Below the pieces are notes generated by a model. The model was not told where the DNA came from. It saw only the letters and a program-made list of their open reading frames with translations, and did not search any database. A DNA stretch of 64,000 nucleotides from Escherichia phage BEU50: sequence record OM632671.1. One strand, written 5' to 3'. The translations under genes were made by a program, and so were the position numbers. Below, one piece after another: positions 5,078-15,081 of this stretch (within the stretch, counting starts at the first letter, position 1; the number at the start of each line of letters is the position of its first letter).

Positions 5078-7789
5078 ATGAAAGAATTTTACTTAACGGT
5101 TGAACAGATTGGTGATTCAATTTTTGAACGTTACATCGATTCTAATGGCCGTGAACGTACTCGTGAAGTAGAATATAAACCATCACTGTTTGCTCATTGT
5201 CCAGAAAGTCAGGCTACGAAATATTTCGATATCTACGGTAAACCGTGTACTCGTAAGTTGTTCGCTAATATGCGTGATGCCTCCCAATGGATTAAACGCA
5301 TGGAAGATATCGGACTTGAAGCACTTGGCATGGACGATTTCAAATTGGCGTATTTGTCTGACACTTATAACTATGAAATCAAATACGACCATACAAAAAT
5401 TCGTGTGGCTAACTTCGACATCGAAGTAACATCTCCGGATGGGTTCCCTGAGCCGTCACAAGCAAAACATCCTATTGATGCTATCACCCATTATGACTCA
5501 ATTGACGACAGGTTCTACGTATTTGATCTATTGAATTCTCCATATGGTAATGTGGAAGAATGGTCTATCGAAATTGCGGCTAAGCTTCAAGAACAAGGCG
5601 GTGATGAAGTTCCATCCGAAATTATCGACAAAATCGTTTATATGCCGTTCGATAACGAAAAAGAATTGTTGATGGAATATCTCAACTTCTGGCAACAGAA
5701 AACTCCTGTCATTTTGACTGGATGGAACGTTGAGTCATTTGATATTCCATATGTGTATAACCGAATCAAGAATATTTTTGGCGAATCTACTGCGAAACGT
5801 TTATCACCACATCGTAAAACTCGTGTTAAAGTTATCGAAAACATGTATGGTTCTCGTGAAATCATTACATTGTTCGGTATCTCTGTTCTTGATTACATTG
5901 ACCTTTACAAAAAATTCTCTTTTACCAATCAACCGTCGTATTCTCTGGATTACATTTCAGAATTTGAATTGAACGTTGGTAAACTGAAATATGACGGCCC
6001 TATTTCTAAGCTTCGTGAAAGCAATCACCAACGATATATTTCTTATAACATTATCGACGTGTATCGTGTATTGCAAATTGATGCTAAGCGTCAGTTCATC
6101 AACTTGAGCTTGGACATGGGTTATTATGCTAAGATACAGATTCAATCTGTGTTTAGCCCAATTAAAACATGGGATGCTATTATTTTTAATAGCCTTAAAG
6201 AGCAGAACAAGGTGATTCCACAAGGTCGTTCTCACCCAGTTCAACCTTACCCTGGTGCTTTTGTTAAGGAACCTATTCCAAATCGATACAAATATGTAAT
6301 GAGTTTCGACCTTACATCTCTGTATCCAAGTATTATTCGCCAAGTGAATATTAGCCCGGAAACAATAGCAGGAACGTTTAAAGTAGCTCCACTGCATGAT
6401 TATATTAACGCAATCGCTGAACGTCCTTCAGATGTGTACAGTTGCTCTCCTAACGGCATGATGTATTATAAAGACCGTGATGGTGTAGTTCCAACTGAAA
6501 TCACTAAGGTCTTTAATCAACGTAAAGAACATAAAGGTTACATGCTTGCAGCTCAACGTAATGGTGAAATAATTAAAGAGGCATTGCATAATCCTAATCT
6601 TTCTGTTGACGAACCATTAGATGTTGATTATCGTTTCGACTTCAGTGATGAGATTAAAGAAAAGATTAAAAAGTTGTCTGCTAAATCTCTTAATGAAATG
6701 TTGTTTAGAGCTCAACGTACTGAAGTTGCAGGTATGACTGCACAGATTAACCGTAAATTGCTCATCAACTCACTTTATGGTGCACTTGGCAACGTTTGGT
6801 TCCGTTATTATGATTTGCGTAATGCTACTGCAATCACAACATTTGGTCAAATGGCTTTACAGTGGATTGAACGTAAAGTTAATGAATATCTGAATGAAGT
6901 TTGTGGTACAGAAGGTGAAGCTTTCGTTCTATATGGTGATACAGACTCCATTTACGTATCTGCAGATAAAATTATTGATAAGGTTGGTGAATCTAAATTC
7001 CGTGATACCAACCATTGGGTAGACTTCTTAGATAAGTTCGCTCGTGAACGTATGGAACCTGCTATTGATAGAGGTTTCCGTGAAATGTGCGAATACATGA
7101 ACAATAAACAACACTTAATGTTCATGGACCGAGAAGCTATCGCTGGTCCTCCGCTCGGTTCTAAAGGTATTGGTGGATTTTGGACTGGTAAGAAACGTTA
7201 TGCATTAAACGTGTGGGATATGGAAGGAACCAGATACGCTGAACCTAAGCTTAAAATCATGGGTCTCGAAACACAGAAATCTTCGACTCCTAAAGCAGTA
7301 CAGAAAGCTCTTAAAGAATGTATTCGTCGTATGCTTCAAGAAGGTGAAGAATCATTACAAGAATATTTTAAAGAGTTTGAAAAAGAATTCCGTCAATTGA
7401 ATTATATTAGCATCGCGTCGGTATCTTCTGCGAATAACATTGCTAAATATGATGTAGGTGGATATCCAGGACCTAAATGCCCGTTCCATATTCGTGGAAT
7501 TCTGACGTATAACCGGGCTATCAAAGGTAATACCGATGCACCGCAAGTTGTAGAAGGTGAAAAAGTATATGTTCTGCCTTTACGTGAAGGAAACCCATTC
7601 GGTGATAAATGTATCGCATGGCCTTCTGGTACTGAAATCACAGATTTAATTAAAGACGATGTACTTCATTGGATGGACTACACTGTTCTCCTTGAGAAGA
7701 CATTTATTAAACCACTTGAAGGATTCACATCAGCAGCGAAACTCGATTACGAGAAGAAAGCATCTCTGTTCGATATGTTCGATTTTTGA
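5078..7789 (+). CDS. 43: DNA polymerase gp43 (family B), RB69-type, 903 aa
   Basis: Translation matches the RB69 polymerase sequence as I remember it (MKEFYLTVEQIGDSIFERYIDSNGRERTREVEYKPSLFAHC...), exonuclease motifs FDIE and YNIIDV, polymerase motifs SLYPS, YGDTDS. Confidence 0.95.
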   Translation: MKEFYLTVEQIGDSIFERYIDSNGRERTREVEYKPSLFAHCPESQATKYFDIYGKPCTRKLFANMRDASQWIKRMEDIGLEALGMDDFKLAYLSDTYNYEIKYDHTKIRVANFDIEVTSPDGFPEPSQAKHPIDAITHYDSIDDRFYVFDLLNSPYGNVEEWSIEIAAKLQEQGGDEVPSEIIDKIVYMPFDNEKELLMEYLNFWQQKTPVILTGWNVESFDIPYVYNRIKNIFGESTAKRLSPHRKTRVKVIENMYGSREIITLFGISVLDYIDLYKKFSFTNQPSYSLDYISEFELNVGKLKYDGPISKLRESNHQRYISYNIIDVYRVLQIDAKRQFINLSLDMGYYAKIQIQSVFSPIKTWDAIIFNSLKEQNKVIPQGRSHPVQPYPGAFVKEPIPNRYKYVMSFDLTSLYPSIIRQVNISPETIAGTFKVAPLHDYINAIAERPSDVYSCSPNGMMYYKDRDGVVPTEITKVFNQRKEHKGYMLAAQRNGEIIKEALHNPNLSVDEPLDVDYRFDFSDEIKEKIKKLSAKSLNEMLFRAQRTEVAGMTAQINRKLLINSLYGALGNVWFRYYDLRNATAITTFGQMALQWIERKVNEYLNEVCGTEGEAFVLYGDTDSIYVSADKIIDKVGESKFRDTNHWVDFLDKFARERMEPAIDRGFREMCEYMNNKQHLMFMDREAIAGPPLGSKGIGGFWTGKKRYALNVWDMEGTRYAEPKLKIMGLETQKSSTPKAVQKALKECIRRMLQEGEESLQEYFKEFEKEFRQLNYISIASVSSANNIAKYDVGGYPGPKCPFHIRGILTYNRAIKGNTDAPQVVEGEKVYVLPLREGNPFGDKCIAWPSGTEITDLIKDDVLHWMDYTVLLEKTFIKPLEGFTSAAKLDYEKKASLFDMFDF

Positions 7790-7829: not shown

Positions 7830-8465
7830 ATGAAAACTACTCCTATTACTATCGCTATTGACGCAATCATAAAACAAGCTTCTTCTTTGGCCGCTATGGC
7901 CAAAGTAATTAGTCAAAACCCTGCTCGTTATAATGCTATTCTAGAAACTCTTCGACGCCCGGGACTTAGTAATTATGAAAGCCGAGTAATTATTACAGGT
8001 GTTGGTAAGAATGCTAATATTGCAACTAAAGCTTCTGAGACATTTGCTTCACTCGGTATCCCGAGTATGTACTTGAACACTGGGCATTATTCTCACGGTG
8101 ATGCAGGATTCATTGCGCCTAATGATGTGTTGATTCATATTAGTCGTTCTGGTAAAACTGAAGAAATGATAGGCGTGGCTAAGCATCTTAAAATGATTCG
8201 ACCGAACGTCAAACAGATTCTGTTGCATTGTAACCCAGACATTCCACAAGAAAATGAAGCCCTTTTTGATTACTCTTTCTGTACAGGCATCGCAGTAGAG
8301 GTTGATGAGAATTCTCTGGCTCCGACTATGTCCACTACATTGTTGTTAGCGCTTATCGATACGTTTGCTATCAACCTTTCGTCTGAACGTGGATTTACCT
8401 CTAATGACTTCCTTAAGTTCCACCCTGGTGGTGCACTAGGTGCCATGTTACGAGGCGAACAATGA
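7830..8465 (+). CDS. SIS-domain sugar-phosphate isomerase, KdsD/GutQ-type arabinose-5-phosphate isomerase catalytic domain without CBS domains
   Basis: Motifs GVGKNANIATKASETFASLG, HGDAG, ISRSGKT, LAPTMSTT, HPGGALG align with the KdsD SIS domain (ATFASTG, HGDLG, ISNSGES, LAPTSSTT, HPGGALG) from memory. Confidence 0.7.
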   Translation: MKTTPITIAIDAIIKQASSLAAMAKVISQNPARYNAILETLRRPGLSNYESRVIITGVGKNANIATKASETFASLGIPSMYLNTGHYSHGDAGFIAPNDVLIHISRSGKTEEMIGVAKHLKMIRPNVKQILLHCNPDIPQENEALFDYSFCTGIAVEVDENSLAPTMSTTLLLALIDTFAINLSSERGFTSNDFLKFHPGGALGAMLRGEQ

Positions 8466-8605
8466 AAGCAATAACAATAGGACTTTTACTATTGATGCTT
8501 GTCATGACTATCTACTGGAGCTTAACGGCTCCAGTAATGATTCCAACACTTGTAATTGGATGGATTATGATTGGACTACAAGCAAAGTATGAATGCTTTA
8601 ACTAG
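8462..8605 (+). CDS. Small hydrophobic membrane protein (47 aa), start overlaps the isomerase stop (ATGA)
   Basis: MKAITIGLLLLMLVMTIYWSLTAPVMIPTLVIGWIMIGLQAKYECFN; below the ORF-track size cutoff. Confidence 0.3.
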   Translation: MKAITIGLLLLMLVMTIYWSLTAPVMIPTLVIGWIMIGLQAKYECFN

Positions 8606-8646: not shown

Positions 8647-10332
8647 ATGAAAAAAGCTGTTATTCTTGGTGCTGGACTGGCAACTCGTTTATATCCAATT
8701 ACTCACCATATTCCTAAGGTGCTTGTTAACTATAAACAAGACACTATTCTGAGCAATTTGTATACAATTTATTCTGACCTAGGCGCAGATGAAATTATTG
8801 TAGTAGTTCATTCAAAATTTGCTGAAACTGTTCGAGCTTATTGTGAGCAAGAAGGGTTCAATGTGACTATTCGTACAGTTGATGAAGCGTATGGTTCTGC
8901 TTATGCTCTTGCTAAATTACACAAAGATTTAGACGGCCATAATGTAATTGTTAACTGGTGTGATATTATTCCGGATTTTGGTTCATGGTCTTGGAATGTT
9001 AACGCAATCTATGTTAAGGGTGACGAATGTCGATATAATTTCGACGGTGAAAATATCACTAACGTAGGTTCAACAGGTGGTAATGTTGTAGGAATTTATC
9101 AGTTCAAAGACTGGGAATTCTATATGGGTTCTACTGATGAGGAAATTCATGAATACTGCAAAGGACGTGATTTCGTAGAATTCCTTTACGGCAGCGCATT
9201 CAATAAATCAGAGCTTATGAATCTAATTGATTTAGGTGATATGCCTAAACTTGAAAAAGCTCATGAAGTTCGTGAACTTAATCGTAGTTTTAATGCAGTT
9301 GAAATTGGTGAAGAAACTGTAACTAAATTCGCATTAACCGAACAGGGCCGAGCTCTTCAGAAAGATGAGATTTCGTGGTATTTGAAAGTGAAATCAGATT
9401 CAGTCCCTCAGTTAGTTTCTGTTAATGAAAATAACTTTGAAATGGAACGCATTAAAGGTAAGCCGGCATTTGAATATATTAAATCCAAATCAAGTCTTGC
9501 TCGTCCACAAATTGTTGATGCAATTTTAGATGCACTGAAATTCAGCACAGACACTTATTTTGTAAGTCCTGAAACTGTTCGTCGTGATTTCACTAAAGAA
9601 TTCTATACGAAAGTTATTGATCGTTGTGAAAGCATTCAACCATTGATTGATTCATTTGGTAAAATCACACATGTGAACTACACTAAGATTGGACGTCTGA
9701 AGCCAATGCTGAAACAAGCTTTAGAACACCTTATTCGTTATCATAACCGTTCTCAGGGACAGTACTCTGTTATTCATGGTGACCCGAACTTCAGTAATAC
9801 TATGATTACTGATAACGGCGAAGTCAAATTTATCGACCCTCGTGGATATTTTGGCGAAACCAAGATTTACGGGCCAAAATTGTACGATGAAGCTAAAGTG
9901 CTTTACGCTGTTTCAGGTTATGATGAATTCAATGCTAATCCGACCTGGGGACAGTTTACTATTGATGAAACAACTTGTAATGTGACTATTAACATCAATC
10001 CATTAGTTTACAAATATGGAAAGATGAGTTCGTTTAACGAGTATCATCATTTGGCAGTGGCAATTATCTGGATTGCATTAGGTGGTTATTTCAAGAATAA
10101 TCCACTTAAAGCGGTAGCCGCATATTATAAAGGTATGGAACTTCTGACTAAGCAATTACGTAACATGGGCCGTGTACTTCAGGACGGCTCTATTAGTTAT
10201 GACGTAGCAGAACCTGTAACGGCTACTCTGATTACAAAAAATCCTGGTAAATGGGTACTAACTGATAAAGAAACTGGTGTTTCCTATCGTCCAATCGGTG
10301 GCGATATCACTCATCAATGGGAACGAATTTGA
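8647..10332 (+). CDS. Bifunctional sugar-1-phosphate nucleotidyltransferase (N-terminal) / APH-fold anomeric sugar kinase (C-terminal)
   Basis: N-terminal MKKAVILGAGLATRLYPIT (RmlA/GlmU-type G-x-G-T-R-L motif); C-terminal HGDPNFSNTMITDNGEVKFIDPRGYFG (APH/choline-kinase Brenner motif HGDxxxxN and DxxG). Confidence 0.65.
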   Translation: MKKAVILGAGLATRLYPITHHIPKVLVNYKQDTILSNLYTIYSDLGADEIIVVVHSKFAETVRAYCEQEGFNVTIRTVDEAYGSAYALAKLHKDLDGHNVIVNWCDIIPDFGSWSWNVNAIYVKGDECRYNFDGENITNVGSTGGNVVGIYQFKDWEFYMGSTDEEIHEYCKGRDFVEFLYGSAFNKSELMNLIDLGDMPKLEKAHEVRELNRSFNAVEIGEETVTKFALTEQGRALQKDEISWYLKVKSDSVPQLVSVNENNFEMERIKGKPAFEYIKSKSSLARPQIVDAILDALKFSTDTYFVSPETVRRDFTKEFYTKVIDRCESIQPLIDSFGKITHVNYTKIGRLKPMLKQALEHLIRYHNRSQGQYSVIHGDPNFSNTMITDNGEVKFIDPRGYFGETKIYGPKLYDEAKVLYAVSGYDEFNANPTWGQFTIDETTCNVTININPLVYKYGKMSSFNEYHHLAVAIIWIALGGYFKNNPLKAVAAYYKGMELLTKQLRNMGRVLQDGSISYDVAEPVTATLITKNPGKWVLTDKETGVSYRPIGGDITHQWERI

Positions 10333-11078
10333 TACATTATCTCTACAAAACTACTAATCTTATAAACGGTAAAGTTTATTTAGGAATGCACTCGGCTGAA
10401 GAAGCCGAGCCTTTAGATTTATATAAAGGTTCTGGTAAATTATATAAAAAGGCTGAAAGGAAATACGGTAAGGAAAATTTTCTTAAAGAAATCATTTCCT
10501 ACCATAGCTCAAGAGAAGAATTAAAAATAGCTGAAAAGGCTCTAATAACATTAGACATAGTTAAAGACCCGAATTATTACAATCTTAAAACTGGTGGCGA
10601 AGGTGGTTCTGACGGGTTATCCCAAAGGTCCAAGGATAAAATTTCTAAGGCAAATAAAGGACGTTTAGTTGGTGATAAAAACCCAAGATGGGGTAAAACT
10701 TTGTCAGCTGAATCTATAGCTAGGGGTAAAGAAAAGCACAGGAGGTATGGTAAACCTGCATTACATGGTCTAAAGATTAATGTAGATGGCAAATATTATG
10801 AATCCTGTCGGGAAGCGGCTAAAGATTTGGGTATATCTTCTGCCACGATTCAAAAGAGAGTAAAATCGCCTAAATATCTTAATTATCGATATCAGGACGA
10901 AAGCAAAAATGCTCACAAGTCTCAAAAATTTGTTAAAATAAACGAAAATTACTATGAATCTCTTAGGATAGCTGAAAAGAAAACGGGTATTCCTAGAAAG
11001 CGTATAGCTGATAATATTAAAAATTCTATTGAAGGATATTGCTATGAAACCATTACATCTTTGCGTGGACGTCGATGA
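10317..11078 (+). CDS. GIY-YIG homing endonuclease (seg-like) with NUMOD-type DNA-binding repeats
   Basis: N-terminal YLYKTTNLINGKVYLGMH (GIY-YIG core); repeated KISKANKGR / GK-x-x-S-x-E motifs; overlaps neighbours at both ends as typical of free-standing HEGs. Confidence 0.65.
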   Translation: MGTNLIHYLYKTTNLINGKVYLGMHSAEEAEPLDLYKGSGKLYKKAERKYGKENFLKEIISYHSSREELKIAEKALITLDIVKDPNYYNLKTGGEGGSDGLSQRSKDKISKANKGRLVGDKNPRWGKTLSAESIARGKEKHRRYGKPALHGLKINVDGKYYESCREAAKDLGISSATIQKRVKSPKYLNYRYQDESKNAHKSQKFVKINENYYESLRIAEKKTGIPRKRIADNIKNSIEGYCYETITSLRGRR

Positions 11079-11418
11079 TTGTATAACAGAGTGGAATAAC
11101 AATCGTGATTACGTGAACTTCAAACCAGACGTCGAAATGGTGTCTGCCATTAATGCCCTGTATGAGGCAGGGCATACCATAACGCTTTACACTGCTCGCG
11201 GTATGAAGTCAGTAGGTCCTGGTCGTATAGCAATTGACATTCTCCCAAGTCTGATTCAGAACTTGGCAAACATTGGCTTGAAGTACCATAATTTGCTAAC
11301 ACATAAACCAGTATATGATTGGATTATCGACGACAAAGCTATGCGTCCTGACGAATTCAAAGCTCTTATGAATAAAGGCGAATTCGAAACATTTAAATCA
11401 TATAAACCGAATCTATAA
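11044..11418 (+). CDS. HAD-superfamily phosphatase (small, KdsC/GmhB-like)
   Basis: Motif I LCVDVDDCIT (DxDx[T/V]); about 125 aa; ATG at 11044 preferred over 11029. Confidence 0.55.
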   Translation: MKPLHLCVDVDDCITEWNNNRDYVNFKPDVEMVSAINALYEAGHTITLYTARGMKSVGPGRIAIDILPSLIQNLANIGLKYHNLLTHKPVYDWIIDDKAMRPDEFKALMNKGEFETFKSYKPNL

Positions 11419-11464: not shown

Positions 11465-12637
11465 ATGCAAAAAAAAATGAATACTTTTAAAATCGGAACG
11501 AATTTTGATTTAGCTCTTCTTGATAAAATCGTAGAGCTCAATAAAACTTATCCTAATAGCTTGATAAACGAAGTATACGGCTCTACAAGAGAAATGGCTT
11601 TTGTAGCAGCCAGACCTGATTTTAGGCTTCCTGACGTTGACAAAAAGATGTTAGAAGATTACGTTAAACGTTGTAACGAATTAGGTATTTGCTTTAACTA
11701 TACACTCAACACGATAAATCCTGGTTCAAAAAGAGAACTAGTTGAGTGGAAGAAGAAAGCTATTCAGGATTATGTTCAGTATCTTTGGTCAATAGGCGTA
11801 TGGCGTATTACTATCGCTAACCCTGTTGTTATGGAAATTGTTCGTGAAGTCAATAAAGACATTGAGATTGAAGTTTCAACAATTCTACATGTCGATGCTG
11901 TAACTCAAATCAAATACTTGCATGACCAATATAATATCAAAAAGGTCTGCTGTGGAATTCATAAGAACCGTTCAGTTTCTTTCCTGAAGCGTGCAGCAGA
12001 GTTTTGCAATAAGAACAATATAATATTTGAAGTTCTTGTAAATGAGTTCTGTTCTAATGCTGGTAAAGGGTATACAACACATTGTAGCTATCGTGACTCT
12101 TGCTATATTTTCCATAGTACTGATGTTACAGCTGATGATGCTAAATCCTTAAACGGATATCCAATGCAGCACTGTATTAAAGCTCGTGATACAGACCCAT
12201 TTAACTGGTTGAGAACTCGTTTTGTTCGTCCTCAAGATTTGAAACTTTATAATGATATTGGTATCACTCAATTCAAAGTTTCAGGACGTACAGGTAGCAC
12301 AGACTACATTTTGAAAGTTCTTGAAGCATACGCTTCTGAAAAGTTTGAAGGTAATTTGTTAGAACTGTGGAAGCCTTTAGAGACTATTTTCACTCTTGAA
12401 AACGAAACTGAGTTTTCACATACGGTAAATATTGAAACCTCTTTGTTAGATGGCTTTTTAGAAAAAAGGTGGTTCAGACATCCAGATTTCGATTGTGCTA
12501 ATGAAATCTGCGGGACGACGTGTACATATTGTGAAAGATATTATAAACGTCAGTTATCTAAAAATGGGTTATCAGAAAATTCTATATCTATTATTGATAT
12601 AACTAACTCTGACGACGCTTTGAGGTACCCGGAATGA
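11465..12637 (+). CDS. Cys-rich protein with U32-family-like features (function unknown)
   Basis: EVLVNEFCSNAGKGYTTHCSYRDSC and FKVSGRTGSTDY resemble U32 family signatures (E-x-F...C...C and K-I-E-G-R-x-x-S-x-x-Y); C-terminal CANEICGTTCTYCERYY cysteine cluster; weak, from memory. Confidence 0.3.
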   Translation: MQKKMNTFKIGTNFDLALLDKIVELNKTYPNSLINEVYGSTREMAFVAARPDFRLPDVDKKMLEDYVKRCNELGICFNYTLNTINPGSKRELVEWKKKAIQDYVQYLWSIGVWRITIANPVVMEIVREVNKDIEIEVSTILHVDAVTQIKYLHDQYNIKKVCCGIHKNRSVSFLKRAAEFCNKNNIIFEVLVNEFCSNAGKGYTTHCSYRDSCYIFHSTDVTADDAKSLNGYPMQHCIKARDTDPFNWLRTRFVRPQDLKLYNDIGITQFKVSGRTGSTDYILKVLEAYASEKFEGNLLELWKPLETIFTLENETEFSHTVNIETSLLDGFLEKRWFRHPDFDCANEICGTTCTYCERYYKRQLSKNGLSENSISIIDITNSDDALRYPE

Positions 12638-12873
12638 TTTCTAGAAAAACTTTTAATTATAAACTTAATGAAGAGATTTTGACTATGAAACTGAACACCA
12701 ACGAACAAATTCTTAAAAAGGCCCTTATGGGCCTGTTTGAAACCAAAGCGGCTAAAGTGATTAAAGAACCTATTCAATTGGAATACTATGCTGATGCATT
12801 TCTTCATAGTGTTCTTGGAAGTATCGATGCTGAAGCTTTACGTTATATCAACATTGCCAAGAAATTCAAATAA
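12634..12873 (+). CDS. Hypothetical protein (79 aa)
   Basis: ORF with ATG overlapping upstream stop. Confidence 0.3.
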   Translation: MISRKTFNYKLNEEILTMKLNTNEQILKKALMGLFETKAAKVIKEPIQLEYYADAFLHSVLGSIDAEALRYINIAKKFK

Positions 12874-12915: not shown

Positions 12916-13632
12916 ATGGGAAAACATAACACAATGAAATATATCAAAGCCGCAGATTTTCAAGCCGCATTTAAAGCAGTCAATCGTGAAATTTTAGAAA
13001 ACCCGGAATTCGTAACTGATTCTCGTATTGGGCGTTGTAATGAAATTGGGTCTATGACAGTAGTTGTTGACACTCCATCATCATTCAAAATGACCGACCC
13101 ACGTATTAACCGCATCTCTTATGAATATGCCGAAGACTTCTGGAAGTTTATGATTTCTGGTGGTACCAACGCAGAAGAAGCGTTTAAGGCATATCCTAAT
13201 GTCGCTAAATTTATTTCTAAACCAAAATCAGATGTTTTGCCGGCGAACTTCAACACTTTCTATGGTCCTCGCATTGCGGCCCAATTACCAGCTCTTCTAA
13301 AAGAACTTAAAGAGAAGCCTAACTCTCGAAGAGTTGTGTTCCAAATTCTAGAAAGTTCTGATCAGGCTTTGCTTGATTCAGACGAAACGCTTGAATATCC
13401 ATGTACTGACTCAGTGACTTATTATATTCGTGATGGTAAGCTTTATACCCACTGTCATATGCGTTCTCAGAACTGTGCTGTTGTTATGCAGTTGGATTTT
13501 TATCTCCAAGGAAAATTACTTCATTATATCGCTAACGAATGTGGTGTAGAAGTTGGTGATTATACTCATACCATGGTAAGTGCCCATGTGTTTGAACGTG
13601 ATTTTGATTATGTTAAAGGATTCCTTGACTAA
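12916..13632 (+). CDS. 42: dCMP hydroxymethylase gp42-like (thymidylate synthase fold)
   Basis: TS-fold motifs (RRVVFQILESSD, EYPCTDSVTYYIRDGKLYTHCHMRSQN, H..VFERD); T4 position between 43 and uvsX. Confidence 0.7.
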   Translation: MGKHNTMKYIKAADFQAAFKAVNREILENPEFVTDSRIGRCNEIGSMTVVVDTPSSFKMTDPRINRISYEYAEDFWKFMISGGTNAEEAFKAYPNVAKFISKPKSDVLPANFNTFYGPRIAAQLPALLKELKEKPNSRRVVFQILESSDQALLDSDETLEYPCTDSVTYYIRDGKLYTHCHMRSQNCAVVMQLDFYLQGKLLHYIANECGVEVGDYTHTMVSAHVFERDFDYVKGFLD

Positions 13633-14531
13633 TGGCTATTTTCCGCGTACCTATTTTGAGTATGCGGTCTTATGAAACTGGACAGTATGCCATCCTTAAG
13701 GATGGCAACTTCCAACTTCATTTGCACCGTGCTAATCCAGGTGATGTGATTACATATCCACGTAATGCATCCGATATTAAAGAATGTGAACGTCTTTTCC
13801 CAGAATTTAAGTTTGTTCCATTATGGTATAAAGATAACGCGTATAACACTCGTAAATATTTCTGGTCTGAAAATGAATTTGTGGTTGATTCATTAATCGC
13901 TTATTATGATTGTGATTTTCTAATCACAGATATCACTGGATACGACGGCGCTTTTGATGTAGAATTCAATTTCAATATCACTGCAGACCCTAATAAACCA
14001 CGTTTTTATATTGACGAATTCTTAAAAACCGACATGTTGTCGGTTAATCGTTCAATCCAAACAACTGTGTTGAATAAACGTCAAAAGGAAGTGCTGGTTA
14101 ACGCAGGTGCAGATGGTAATAAGATTATCATAACCCAGAAAGTTATACGTCCTTCCATCATGCAGCGTCTTGTAGGTGATTTAGCTCCTATTCATCTAGA
14201 TGGTATTTTTCATCCATTTCGAATTAGTGACCCGTGCTATCGGTTTGAACAAGTGGTTGAATGTGCAATTCAATTAGGCCAACCGCTTTATATAACCGAT
14301 CCAAATAATAGCTTCGACAGAAATAAGTATCCTGAAGAAGCGCTGATTCGAATTTTTAAACCAACTAAAACTGAGTACTATCAAATTCTTAAAGGACGTC
14401 CGAAGATTCAATATTTCGAAAATCCTGAAGAAGTATTCCATCCAGGTCTTGGTGAGTTCATCTACTTTAATGCTTTAATTTCTTCACCGTATAATATACC
14501 TAAATACGAAGATGTCGTAATCGAGGAATAA
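13632..14531 (+). CDS. Hypothetical protein (299 aa) at the locus where T4 encodes beta-glucosyltransferase
   Basis: ORF with ATG overlapping gene 42 stop; no confident family assignment; position-based suspicion of a DNA-modification role. Confidence 0.4.
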   Translation: MAIFRVPILSMRSYETGQYAILKDGNFQLHLHRANPGDVITYPRNASDIKECERLFPEFKFVPLWYKDNAYNTRKYFWSENEFVVDSLIAYYDCDFLITDITGYDGAFDVEFNFNITADPNKPRFYIDEFLKTDMLSVNRSIQTTVLNKRQKEVLVNAGADGNKIIITQKVIRPSIMQRLVGDLAPIHLDGIFHPFRISDPCYRFEQVVECAIQLGQPLYITDPNNSFDRNKYPEEALIRIFKPTKTEYYQILKGRPKIQYFENPEEVFHPGLGEFIYFNALISSPYNIPKYEDVVIEE

Positions 14532-14532
14532 A

Positions 14533-15081
14533 ATGGCTAAAATTATTTTAGTAGATGGCCCGGATAATGCTGGTAAAACAACTTTCATTAATGACATAAT
14601 GGAAATTAGTGAAAGATATGTAAAGATTGATTTCCCTAAACGAACAGTTGATGGACGTTTCGATGTTAAGTCTCGAAATGAAGTTGGCTGTTTCGAAACG
14701 ATGTTGAATTATTTAGACCCTACTAAGATTTATCTGTTAGACCGTGGATATATTAGTAACTGGGTTTACGGACGTATTCGACAAGATGCGGACTCTGTTC
14801 TTGACGTTTATGAACAGGATTATGTTCGTCTTTGCCAAAACCATGATGTGTTCACAATTATTTTAACACGTAACGAAATGACTGAAAGTTTTGAAGACGA
14901 CCTTATTACTTTGTCTTCATTCGGTTTTAATACAGTCATTTCACATTTTGAAGAGTTTGCAATTCATAACAAAATCCAAACGTATCAATTACTTAATCAT
15001 GATGGTGCTAACAAAGTTATAGGATTTAATGCAAGCGAACGTAATGTTTTGATTACAGAAATCATCAAATGGGCTCGTTAA
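14533..15081 (+). CDS. P-loop nucleotide/nucleoside kinase-like protein
   Basis: Walker A VDGPDNAGKTTF (thymidylate/dNMP kinase-like), 182 aa. Confidence 0.5.
   Translation: MAKIILVDGPDNAGKTTFINDIMEISERYVKIDFPKRTVDGRFDVKSRNEVGCFETMLNYLDPTKIYLLDRGYISNWVYGRIRQDADSVLDVYEQDYVRLCQNHDVFTIILTRNEMTESFEDDLITLSSFGFNTVISHFEEFAIHNKIQTYQLLNHDGANKVIGFNASERNVLITEIIKWAR

Follow-up and report, generated by a model that had tools for sequence, protein, structure and literature searches.

A Peptidase_U32-family protein in the DNA-modification cluster of Escherichia phage BEU50 as a candidate oxygen-independent pyrimidine hydroxylase

What is a member of the Peptidase_U32 family doing in the DNA-modification locus of a phage? 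The question is raised by an open reading frame (ORF) of 390 amino acids, the orthologue of RB69 gp50, at 11465..12637 on the plus strand of a 64,000-nucleotide stretch of Escherichia phage BEU50 (sequence record OM632671.1; this whole stretch is referred to as the window). An initial annotation had described U32-like, cysteine-rich features in this ORF, placed it inside a sugar-nucleotide and DNA-modification cluster and regarded a U32 enzyme there as unusual. All of the motifs that it quoted were found in the translation and in our alignments, the cluster that contains the U32 gene is flanked by the genes for DNA polymerase (5078..7789) and UvsX (from 15180), and the setting is indeed an unusual one for the family. 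The gene is known and is annotated as ‘peptidase’; judged by sequence comparison, it is a strong candidate to be a U32 hydroxylase variant that viruses carry and use in DNA hypermodification. By analogy with these enzymes, we propose, with a probability of roughly 0.6, that the protein is an O2-independent, prephenate-dependent pyrimidine C5 hydroxylase making 5-hydroxy-deoxycytidine monophosphate (5-hydroxy-dCMP), and thus the anaerobic counterpart of the ThyA-like enzyme encoded close by.

Family membership was analysed at the levels of sequence and fold. The protein matched Peptidase_U32 (PF01136) in Pfam, scoring 42.2 bits where the gathering cut-off is 22.4 (E=7.5e-11), over residues 98–290 (11756..12334, plus strand), a domain that lies within a TIM-barrel-like fold, and its homologues likewise bear a precomputed PF01136 match. 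A match to PHROG 5757, labelled ‘peptidase’, had an E-value of 3e-267. An AlphaFold2 (AF2) model built on a 77-sequence alignment reached a predicted local distance difference test (pLDDT) score of 93 and a predicted template modelling (pTM) score of 0.91, and its top fold match in the PDB was the U32 ‘peptidase’ Mk0906 (5D88; Foldseek E=7e-7, TM-score 0.71 normalised to the target), followed by generic TIM barrels. When the PDB was searched by sequence, phmmer gave no match and the family profile gave a spurious match to BIM1 only. The window protein is a bona fide Peptidase_U32 member, and the assignment, which had been called weak in the initial annotation, is statistically sound by Pfam's curated threshold as well as by fold. 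The true start of the ORF is probably the ATG at 11477, giving a protein of 386 residues, because the homologues and the Bas46 annotation begin at Met5 (MNTFK...).

Comparison with the characterised members was then made by hhalign with three of the four Escherichia coli paralogues (RlhA, TrhP and UbiU; UbiV was left out). The best profile match was to RlhA (E=1.4e-5 over 205 columns), followed by TrhP (2.7e-3) and UbiU (4.7e-3). In NCBIfam, partial matches of 12–19 bits to the UbiU and TrhP models were obtained, the cut-offs of which are 440 and 534 bits, and assignment to the RlhA, TrhP, UbiU or UbiV equivalog was ruled out, with scores far under every cut-off. The DUF3656 C-terminal domain was not found in the U32 protein, the chain of which stops at residue 390 in a Cys4 motif, and there was no match on it to the thymidylate synthase family PF00303, to which the neighbouring ORF at 12916..13632 does match. 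Among 1.84 billion representative proteins, the family profile picked up only 1,706 at E<=1e-3 (488 at E<=1e-30), and the protein therefore belongs to a separate, moderately sized subfamily. It is 99–100% identical in ~150 Mosigvirus genomes and 80–89% identical in other T4-like genera, and no other protein of the module is as well conserved across the T4-like genera (82–89% identity, compared with 42–83% for its neighbours; the figures are 74–83% for the ThyA-like protein and 38–88% for the others).

Residue conservation was derived from the 77-sequence family alignment, which reaches down to 46% identity. Cys162, Cys196, Cys207, Cys213, Cys237, Cys344, Cys349, Cys353 and Cys356 were invariant, and Cys181 was nearly so (at least 90%). 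The cysteine-rich segment formed by Cys196, Cys207, Cys213 and Cys237 (12050..12175, plus strand) sits where U32 proteins have their canonical [4Fe-4S] motif (CX6CX15-16CX3-4C) but with the spacing CX10CX5CX23C, as seen in a MAFFT alignment with UbiU, UbiV, RlhA and TrhP and in the hhalign alignment with RlhA. The U32 cysteine signature claimed for this ORF thus holds in part: the cysteine-rich region is there, but the canonical four-cysteine motif is only partly conserved. Cys196 and Cys237 are kept in 118–119 of 119 more distant family representatives. The motifs NEFC196, DSC213Y and FKVSGRTGSTDY281 align to RlhA, TrhP and UbiU; within the last of these, Lys271 to Tyr281 (KVSGRTGSTDY; 12275..12307, plus strand) is the counterpart of the U32 ‘KIEGR...Y’ block, aligned to FKIEGR of the same three proteins, with Lys271 and Arg275 present in 119/119 distant representatives and the glutamate of KIEGR replaced by serine or threonine. 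A further motif near the C-terminus, CX4CX3CX2C (Cys344, Cys349, Cys353 and Cys356; 12494..12532, plus strand), is invariant in the 77 sequences and kept in about 87–92% of the 119 distant representatives, and it is not found in the aligned E. coli paralogues. This Cys4 motif is a subfamily hallmark and may form a second metal or iron–sulfur (Fe–S) site; the protein as a whole is probably an Fe–S enzyme.

The chemistry of the locus is known from RB69-type DNA. Mono- and di-arabinosyl-5-hydroxycytosine are its only non-canonical bases, and cytosine is fully replaced in the virion DNA (Lee et al., NAR 2026, PMC13326640); the modified base of these phages is not, as a correction, a hydroxymethyl one. 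The hydroxyl group is put on dCMP by the ThyA homologue RB69 gp48, a flavin-binding enzyme that takes the oxygen from O2, as revealed by 18O2 labelling (PMC13326640), and the authors credit confirmation of the role of gp48 to He et al. 2026. RB69 gp50 is listed in the same paper in Table 1 only, as a ‘sugar or heterocycle reductase’ with a structural match to 5D88, and is not discussed there; the discussion mentions two RNA hydroxylation pathways with no tie to gp50. Among the bacterial U32 enzymes, RlhA, TrhP and UbiU/V need prephenate; in each case function is regained when only the chorismate mutase domain of PheA is supplied (PMC5727448, PMC6599085 and PMC10990095). For UbiU/V, prephenate was identified as the oxygen donor by isotope labelling (PMC10990095). 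In our full-text literature searches, no paper was found in which prephenate or chorismate mutase is connected with the U32 proteins of phages.

Prephenate is the product of chorismate mutase, and it is this enzyme that is encoded directly behind U32 in at least eight T4-like genera besides Mosigvirus. A Pfam-significant CM_2 domain was found directly 3′ of U32 in Kanagawavirus (CIP9 and PEi26), Kagamiyamavirus (EcS1) and Winklervirus (Serratia phage LC53, in which the chorismate mutase gene overlaps the 3′ end of U32), and CM_2 is also 3′ of U32 in Gualtarvirus (Providencia phage PSTRCR_127), Tegunavirus (Yersinia phage TG1) and Shewanella phage Thanatos-2. In Thanatos-2, U32 has been relocated within a rearranged cluster and the overlapping chorismate mutase ORF is still directly behind it; the U32 gene is not discussed in the Thanatos paper. 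The members of Kanagawavirus differ: both genes are present in CIP9 and PEi26, Kosakonia phage 305 is without either, and this joint presence or absence indicates that U32 and chorismate mutase behave as a cassette. When 50,697 phage records were searched by tblastn for the EcS1 chorismate mutase, 56 contained a match; every one of these is from a T4-like phage that also carries U32, and the gene occupied the post-U32 position in those that were inspected. The phage chorismate mutases retain the residues used in catalysis by EcCM of E. coli (Arg11, Arg28, Lys39, Glu52, Ser84 and Gln88).

The association extends beyond the T4-like phages. Many homologues of 46–58% identity were returned when 5.8 billion proteins were searched. 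The first contig look-ups comprised nine loci, two of them duplicates, all in nucleotide-metabolism contexts and most clearly on phage contigs; in most of them U32 lay inside a replication/nucleotide module with PolIII-alpha. From IMG/VR we retrieved 49 loci and from GTDB genomes another 10, and scored the neighbourhoods by phmmer over 7–10 kb on each side of U32, less at contig ends. The non-T4 set consisted of 49 loci, mostly on phage contigs, several of which were binned with strict anaerobes. Within these flanks, the PHROG 3891 glycosyltransferase was found near U32 in 15/15 T4-like and 30/49 non-T4 loci, AfhE in 15/15 and 18/49, AfhF in all 15 T4-like loci, and the ThyA-like 5-hydroxy-dCMP synthase in 15/15 T4-like and 0/49 non-T4 loci (with one canonical ThyA, at locus L042). 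Arabinose-5-phosphate (A5P) isomerase accompanied U32 in about 10 of the 49 non-T4 loci, other neighbours being a Tmk-like kinase, dCMP deaminase, TET-associated-type glycosyltransferase (TAGT) and UDP-galactopyranose mutase (GLF). The reading frames of the PHROG 3891 glycosyltransferase and U32 often overlap outside the T4-like group; in L015, L022, L023 and L024 the glycosyltransferase ORF overlaps U32 upstream, with the Tmk-like kinase ahead of it. Since glycosyltransferases of the 5-hydroxycytosine (5hoC) type are present in these loci and the ThyA-like gene is in 0/49, U32 would therefore hold the hydroxylase slot.

Supply of prephenate is again encoded beside U32 in a part of this set. 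Chorismate mutase and/or 3-deoxy-D-arabino-heptulosonate 7-phosphate (DAHP) synthase was found near U32 in 14/49 non-T4 loci, compared with 13/15 T4-like loci for chorismate mutase. Fusions of DAHP synthase and chorismate mutase lie immediately 5′ of U32 in L051, L053 and L054; DAHP synthase lies immediately 3′ of U32 in L039 and in L013, the latter with an AfhE homologue upstream; stand-alone chorismate mutase is 3′ of U32 in loci from 190–295 kb contigs and from Romboutsia metagenome-assembled genomes (MAGs); and in L076 chorismate mutase is ~2 kb downstream of U32. U32 is thus coupled to the supply of prephenate in at least four distinct gene architectures. The possibility that the DAHP_synth_1 neighbour is instead a 3-deoxy-D-manno-octulosonate 8-phosphate (KDO8P) synthase using A5P was ruled out: the DAHP synthase models score 3–4 times higher (best model 221–237 bits, compared with about 60–67 bits for KDO8P synthase, in L013 and L039), and three of the copies are fused to chorismate mutase. 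The kinship with oxygen-independent hydroxylases that the initial annotation had raised is strongly, if indirectly, supported by these couplings and by the 5hoC-type glycosyltransferase neighbours with no ThyA-like gene nearby.

Some individual loci have contexts of their own. In L015 and L047, a TAGT (PF20691) overlaps U32 downstream and a UDP-galactopyranose mutase is nearby; neither a TET/JBP gene nor a ThyA homologue was found in the flanks, and from this gene content U32 appears to replace the usual oxygen-dependent hydroxyl-generating enzyme. L010 (on a 466-kb contig) and L014, both from very large phage-like contigs, have a module of PolIII-alpha and uracil-DNA glycosylase (UDG), with dCMP deaminase directly upstream of U32 and a 250-residue protein of weak epimerase similarity 3′ of it, and have no PHROG 3891 glycosyltransferase; the arrangement suggests a uracil-directed variant of the pathway (5-hydroxy-dUMP, the deoxyuridine monophosphate derivative) or an otherwise different one. 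In L011 and L012 (metagenome contigs) and L085 (Phocaeicola faecalis, NZ_JADNRM010000017.1), U32 follows GP88 (PF17338), a methyltransferase, which is fused to guanylate kinase in L085, and a 265-residue protein. After U32 in L011 come NT5C, a PnuC-like transporter, a deoxynucleoside kinase (dNK), a radical-SAM/SPASM protein, a second, faint U32 and a nucleoside 2-deoxyribosyltransferase (Nuc_deoxyrib_tr). The GP88–U32 context is possibly cellular or a prophage remnant, and looks like a nucleoside-modification or salvage island.

The distribution of U32 over hosts was compared with that of the arabinose pathway. U32 was found in 221 phage records, with Escherichia, Klebsiella, Shigella, Serratia, Proteus, Yersinia, Enterobacter, Providencia, Edwardsiella, Pectobacterium, Erwinia, Kosakonia, Morganella and Shewanella as hosts, which are generally held to be facultative anaerobes. 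AfhE, as a marker of the arabinose pathway, was found in 368 records, 57 of which are of Acinetobacter phages. Acinetobacter are strict aerobes; the genus is not among the U32 hosts listed, and the cluster of DLP2 has neither U32 nor chorismate mutase. Contigs with U32 only were binned with Erysipelotrichales, Bacillota, Oscillospiraceae, Romboutsia, Tannerella, Phocaeicola faecalis, Planctomycetota, BRC1 and Woesearchaeota, the hosts being those given by MAG binning. For the tRNA hydroxylases TrhO and TrhP, both enzymes occur in facultative anaerobes, TrhP only in strict anaerobes and TrhO only in aerobes (PMC6599085). By analogy, the phage pattern (both genes, the ThyA-like gene only, or U32 only) matches this three-way pattern.

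From family membership, fold, conserved cysteines, gene neighbourhood and host pattern we infer a substrate, the use of prephenate, Fe–S binding and an anaerobic role as follows. The U32 enzyme would convert dCMP into 5-hydroxy-dCMP without O2, with prephenate as the oxygen donor and one or more Fe–S clusters as the oxidation agent, as proposed for RlhA (ho5C in rRNA), TrhP (ho5U in tRNA) and UbiU/V. The 5-hydroxy-dCMP so formed would join the aerobic route through the deoxynucleoside monophosphate (dNMP) kinase, the polymerase and the arabinosyltransferases, and this back-up would keep the synthesis of arabinosyl-5-hydroxycytosine DNA going in the anoxic gut; in phages with dCMP deaminase upstream of U32, 5-hydroxy-dUMP may be the alternative product. 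A mononucleotide substrate is suggested because cytosine is fully replaced, nucleotide kinases are adjacent and the RNA-binding extensions of RlhA and TrhP are lacking. Our own arithmetic for a 168-kb genome of ~37% G+C and one prephenate per hydroxylation gives a need of ~6e4 prephenate per genome copy, and with an assumed burst of ~100, millions per infected cell; such a demand would rationalise the phage chorismate mutase and DAHP synthase genes. A wider proposition, which we regard as evenly balanced, is that a phage-own U32 subfamily hydroxylates free pyrimidine deoxynucleotides with prephenate in place of O2, so that phages of facultative anaerobes, this Mosigvirus included, would have two non-homologous 5-hydroxy-dCMP synthases and phages of strict anaerobes U32 alone; many phages would import chorismate mutase or DAHP synthase.

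Several observations weigh against the proposed hydroxylase. By tblastn with the EcS1 enzyme, no chorismate mutase was found in Mosigvirus, and the window phage is thus without one; prephenate would therefore have to come from the host PheA/TyrA. Klebsiella phage Marfa (L004), with a U32 protein of 89% identity, also lacks the gene, so that chorismate mutase was apparently lost at least twice. (In Marfa, U32 and the ThyA homologue are not separated by a small ORF, and related Klebsiella phages, L030/L031 among others, do have chorismate mutase.) The Dhakavirus coliphage Bp7 and Kosakonia phage 305 are arabinosylating phages without U32, and the gene is therefore dispensable for the pathway, at least in some conditions, as is expected of a conditional back-up. 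In the protein itself, the canonical fourth cysteine ligand has no counterpart in either the MAFFT or the hhalign alignment, the two of which differ on whether Cys196 or Cys207 is the equivalent of the first ligand, and none of the RlhA, TrhP, UbiU and UbiV equivalogs of NCBIfam takes the protein in. As for the non-T4 loci, the count of 0/49 for the ThyA-like gene covers the 7–10 kb flanks rather than whole contigs, several of the loci are near-duplicates or related, so that the 49 are not independent, and the hosts of the U32-only contigs come from MAG binning. Finally, as of 2024, direct activity of the U32 hydroxylases had not been shown and there was no in vitro assay (PMC10990095).

Of the three E. 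coli paralogues compared by profile, RlhA (YdcP), the 5-hydroxycytidine-2501 synthase of 23S rRNA, is the best match to the phage protein. The two share the Peptidase_U32 core, the FK(I/V)xGR block, a cysteine pair aligned as CX5-6C and, as proposed, a prephenate- and Fe–S-dependent, O2-independent hydroxylation of cytosine C5 (PMC5727448). They differ in length (390 compared with 653 residues), in the absence from the phage protein of the DUF3656/RNA-binding extension and of the canonical fourth cysteine, in an 11-residue insertion with Cys207 and the extra C-terminal CX4CX3CX2C of the phage protein, and in the presumed substrate, a free deoxynucleotide rather than rRNA. TrhP and TrhO, which make ho5U34 in tRNA, offer the precedent of one 5-hydroxypyrimidine made by two enzymes, a U32 enzyme that needs prephenate and another that needs O2 (PMC6599085), but the O2-dependent partner in the phage is a flavin-binding thymidylate synthase homologue instead of a rhodanese, and the target would be a DNA precursor pool requiring millions of turnovers per infection instead of a few tRNAs. 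UbiU–UbiV (with UbiT) are of the same family, and the phage protein has weak NCBIfam matches to UbiU; Fe–S clusters and labelled prephenate oxygen have been shown for this pair (PMC10990095), which is, however, a heterodimer acting on a lipid-bound aromatic ring, whereas the T4-like phage gene has no second U32 subunit or UbiT-like gene adjoining it. The ThyA-like 5-hydroxy-dCMP synthase (RB69 gp48 and its phage HY126 homologue) is encoded by an adjoining gene and shares the proposed product and pathway, but with its thymidylate synthase fold and dependence on flavin and O2 it would be a functional analogue of the U32 TIM barrel, not a homologue. Mk0906 of Methanopyrus kandleri (5D88) is the closest solved fold, and the same match was reported for RB69 gp50 (PMC13326640), but the sequence identity is 11% and part of the phage protein is covered.

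Could the protein catalyse a different redox step on a nucleotide or base, such as a second oxidation, a ‘repair’ of unmodified cytosine in the DNA or the hydroxylation of dUMP, using Fe–S and possibly prephenate? The general nucleotide context of U32, with dCMP deaminase directly ahead of it in L010 and L014, and in L011 flanked by NT5C, dNK and Nuc_deoxyrib_tr, would suit such a step, as would the label ‘sugar or heterocycle reductase’ for RB69 gp50 in Table 1 of PMC13326640 and the C-terminal Cys4 motif, which the known hydroxylases do not have. However, mono- and di-arabinosyl-5hoC as sole non-canonical bases (PMC13326640) leave no further product to explain, and the U32-only phages with 5hoC-type glycosyltransferases must have some hydroxyl-making enzyme; we consider this explanation unlikely, if the strongest of the rivals. 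Still less probable is a role in the sugar branch, modifying or reducing arabinose or another nucleotide-sugar intermediate. BASEL annotates the product as a ‘putative enzyme involved in UDP-arabinose biosynthesis’, the U32 gene lies between AfhF and the hydroxylase gene amid sugar-activation genes, and AfhE and A5P isomerase co-occur with it in the non-T4 loci at the frequencies given above; but A5P isomerase, AfhE and AfhF together already supply the route to UDP-arabinofuranose (UDP-Araf) (PMC13326640), U32 is also found with genes for non-arabinose glycosylation (TAGT and GLF) or with no sugar genes at all, arabinosylating phages of Acinetobacter, Dhakavirus and Kosakonia 305 manage without it, and the coupling to chorismate mutase and DAHP synthase would be left unexplained.

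An RNA hydroxylase, tuning translation through phage or host tRNA or rRNA and sitting in the cluster by accident, would accord with the fact that all of the characterised U32 enzymes acting on nucleic acids act on RNA and that RlhA is the best paralogue match. Such a role is slightly more doubtful again, as the protein is without the extra C-terminal domains of RlhA (653 residues, DUF3656) and TrhP (453 residues), the host has its own RlhA and TrhP, and the gene is tightly linked, often by overlapping frames, to genes for DNA glycosyltransferase, nucleotide kinase and polymerase in many unrelated phages. That the gene encodes a genuine collagenase-like peptidase, or is a non-functional passenger, we find scarcely credible: the family name and the database annotations say ‘peptidase’, but the gene is the most conserved of the module, its invariant residues are cysteine clusters with no protease triad, its contexts are consistently nucleotide-metabolic, and the grounds for regarding U32 proteins as peptidases at all are poor (PMC5727448). 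None of these rivals explains both that U32 is coupled to chorismate mutase and DAHP synthase and that the ThyA-like gene is absent beside 5hoC-type glycosyltransferases.

If the proposed prephenate-dependent hydroxylase is right, it would be the first viral U32 hydroxylase and the first with a small soluble substrate, and glycosylated 5-hydroxypyrimidine DNA would be widespread among phages of gut and other anaerobes. It would explain how arabinosyl-5-hydroxycytosine phages replicate in anoxic habitats, the only known hydroxylase being O2-dependent, and give a role to a gene that is conserved in >200 sequenced phages and about 490 protein clusters at 50% identity. The phage chorismate mutase and DAHP synthase would be auxiliary metabolic genes serving DNA hypermodification. 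An oxygen-dependent host range and defence evasion would be predicted, which would be relevant to therapy with Mosigvirus-type phages in the gut. A 390-residue enzyme with a soluble mononucleotide as substrate would also be far easier to reconstitute than U32 enzymes that depend on rRNA, tRNA or polyprenyl-quinone.

The genes surrounding U32 in the window, all on the plus strand, are those of RB69-like phages. The 6.6-kb region round U32 is 98–99% identical to Mosigvirus genomes (RB69-like T-even coliphages such as NRG-P0074, a20 and Bas46). A probable A5P isomerase at the RB69 gp55 position (7830..8465) is named so only from its length and position, which are as in Bas46 bas46_0148. It is followed by a bifunctional sugar kinase/nucleotidyltransferase, the AfhE or RB69 gp52:53 orthologue (8647..10332; Pfam NTP_transferase, weak kinase matches and PHROG 4098), and, ahead of U32, by a HAD phosphatase of the UDP-arabinofuranose pathway, the AfhF or RB69 gp51 orthologue (11029..11418; PHROG 1238), both as described in PMC13326640. 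Downstream of U32 are the 79-residue ORF that corresponds to RB69 ORF049c (12634..12873; PHROG 8601), the ThyA-like 5-hydroxy-dCMP synthase orthologous to RB69 gp48 (12916..13632; Pfam Thymidylat_synt, function according to PMC13326640), the PHROG 3891 glycosyltransferase of RB69 gp46:47, proposed to be the first arabinosyltransferase (13632..14531; PMC13326640), and a thymidylate-kinase-like nucleotide kinase, RB69 gp45 (14533..15081; PHROG 761). A promoter and terminator scan of the cluster gave counts equal to chance.

The start of the 79-residue ORF overlaps the stop codon of U32 (ATGA). The ORF is confined to Mosigvirus, Tegunavirus, Pectobacterium phage PM2 and Serratia phage 92A1, and in the non-Mosigvirus genomes in which both genes were located (Yersinia phage TG1 and relatives, PM2 and 92A1) it lies between U32 and chorismate mutase; the window protein is 48% identical to the TG1 ORF at that place. 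It is far less conserved than U32, is frameshifted in some genomes, and has no cysteine and no Pfam match. That it is itself a chorismate mutase was ruled out, with no CM_2 match and an hhalign probability of 0.3% against the phage chorismate mutases. Its product could assist the U32 enzyme as an accessory factor.

A GIY-YIG homing endonuclease gene (10317..11078, plus strand; an ORF annotated so in the closest genomes), which stands outside the pathway, is inserted between AfhE and AfhF and overlaps both. Few Mosigviruses carry it (NRG-P0074, a20 and JM17); most of them cover 89% of the query and are without it. Homing endonuclease genes also border the U32 cassette in LC53 and PEi26, and one lies 3′ of the ThyA homologue in Kosakonia phage 305; homing endonucleases could be drivers of the patchy spread of the U32–chorismate mutase cassette. 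A 47-residue ORF between the isomerase and AfhE (8462..8605) is kept in most of the T4-like clusters inspected, and its counterpart in LC53 is annotated with a transmembrane segment.

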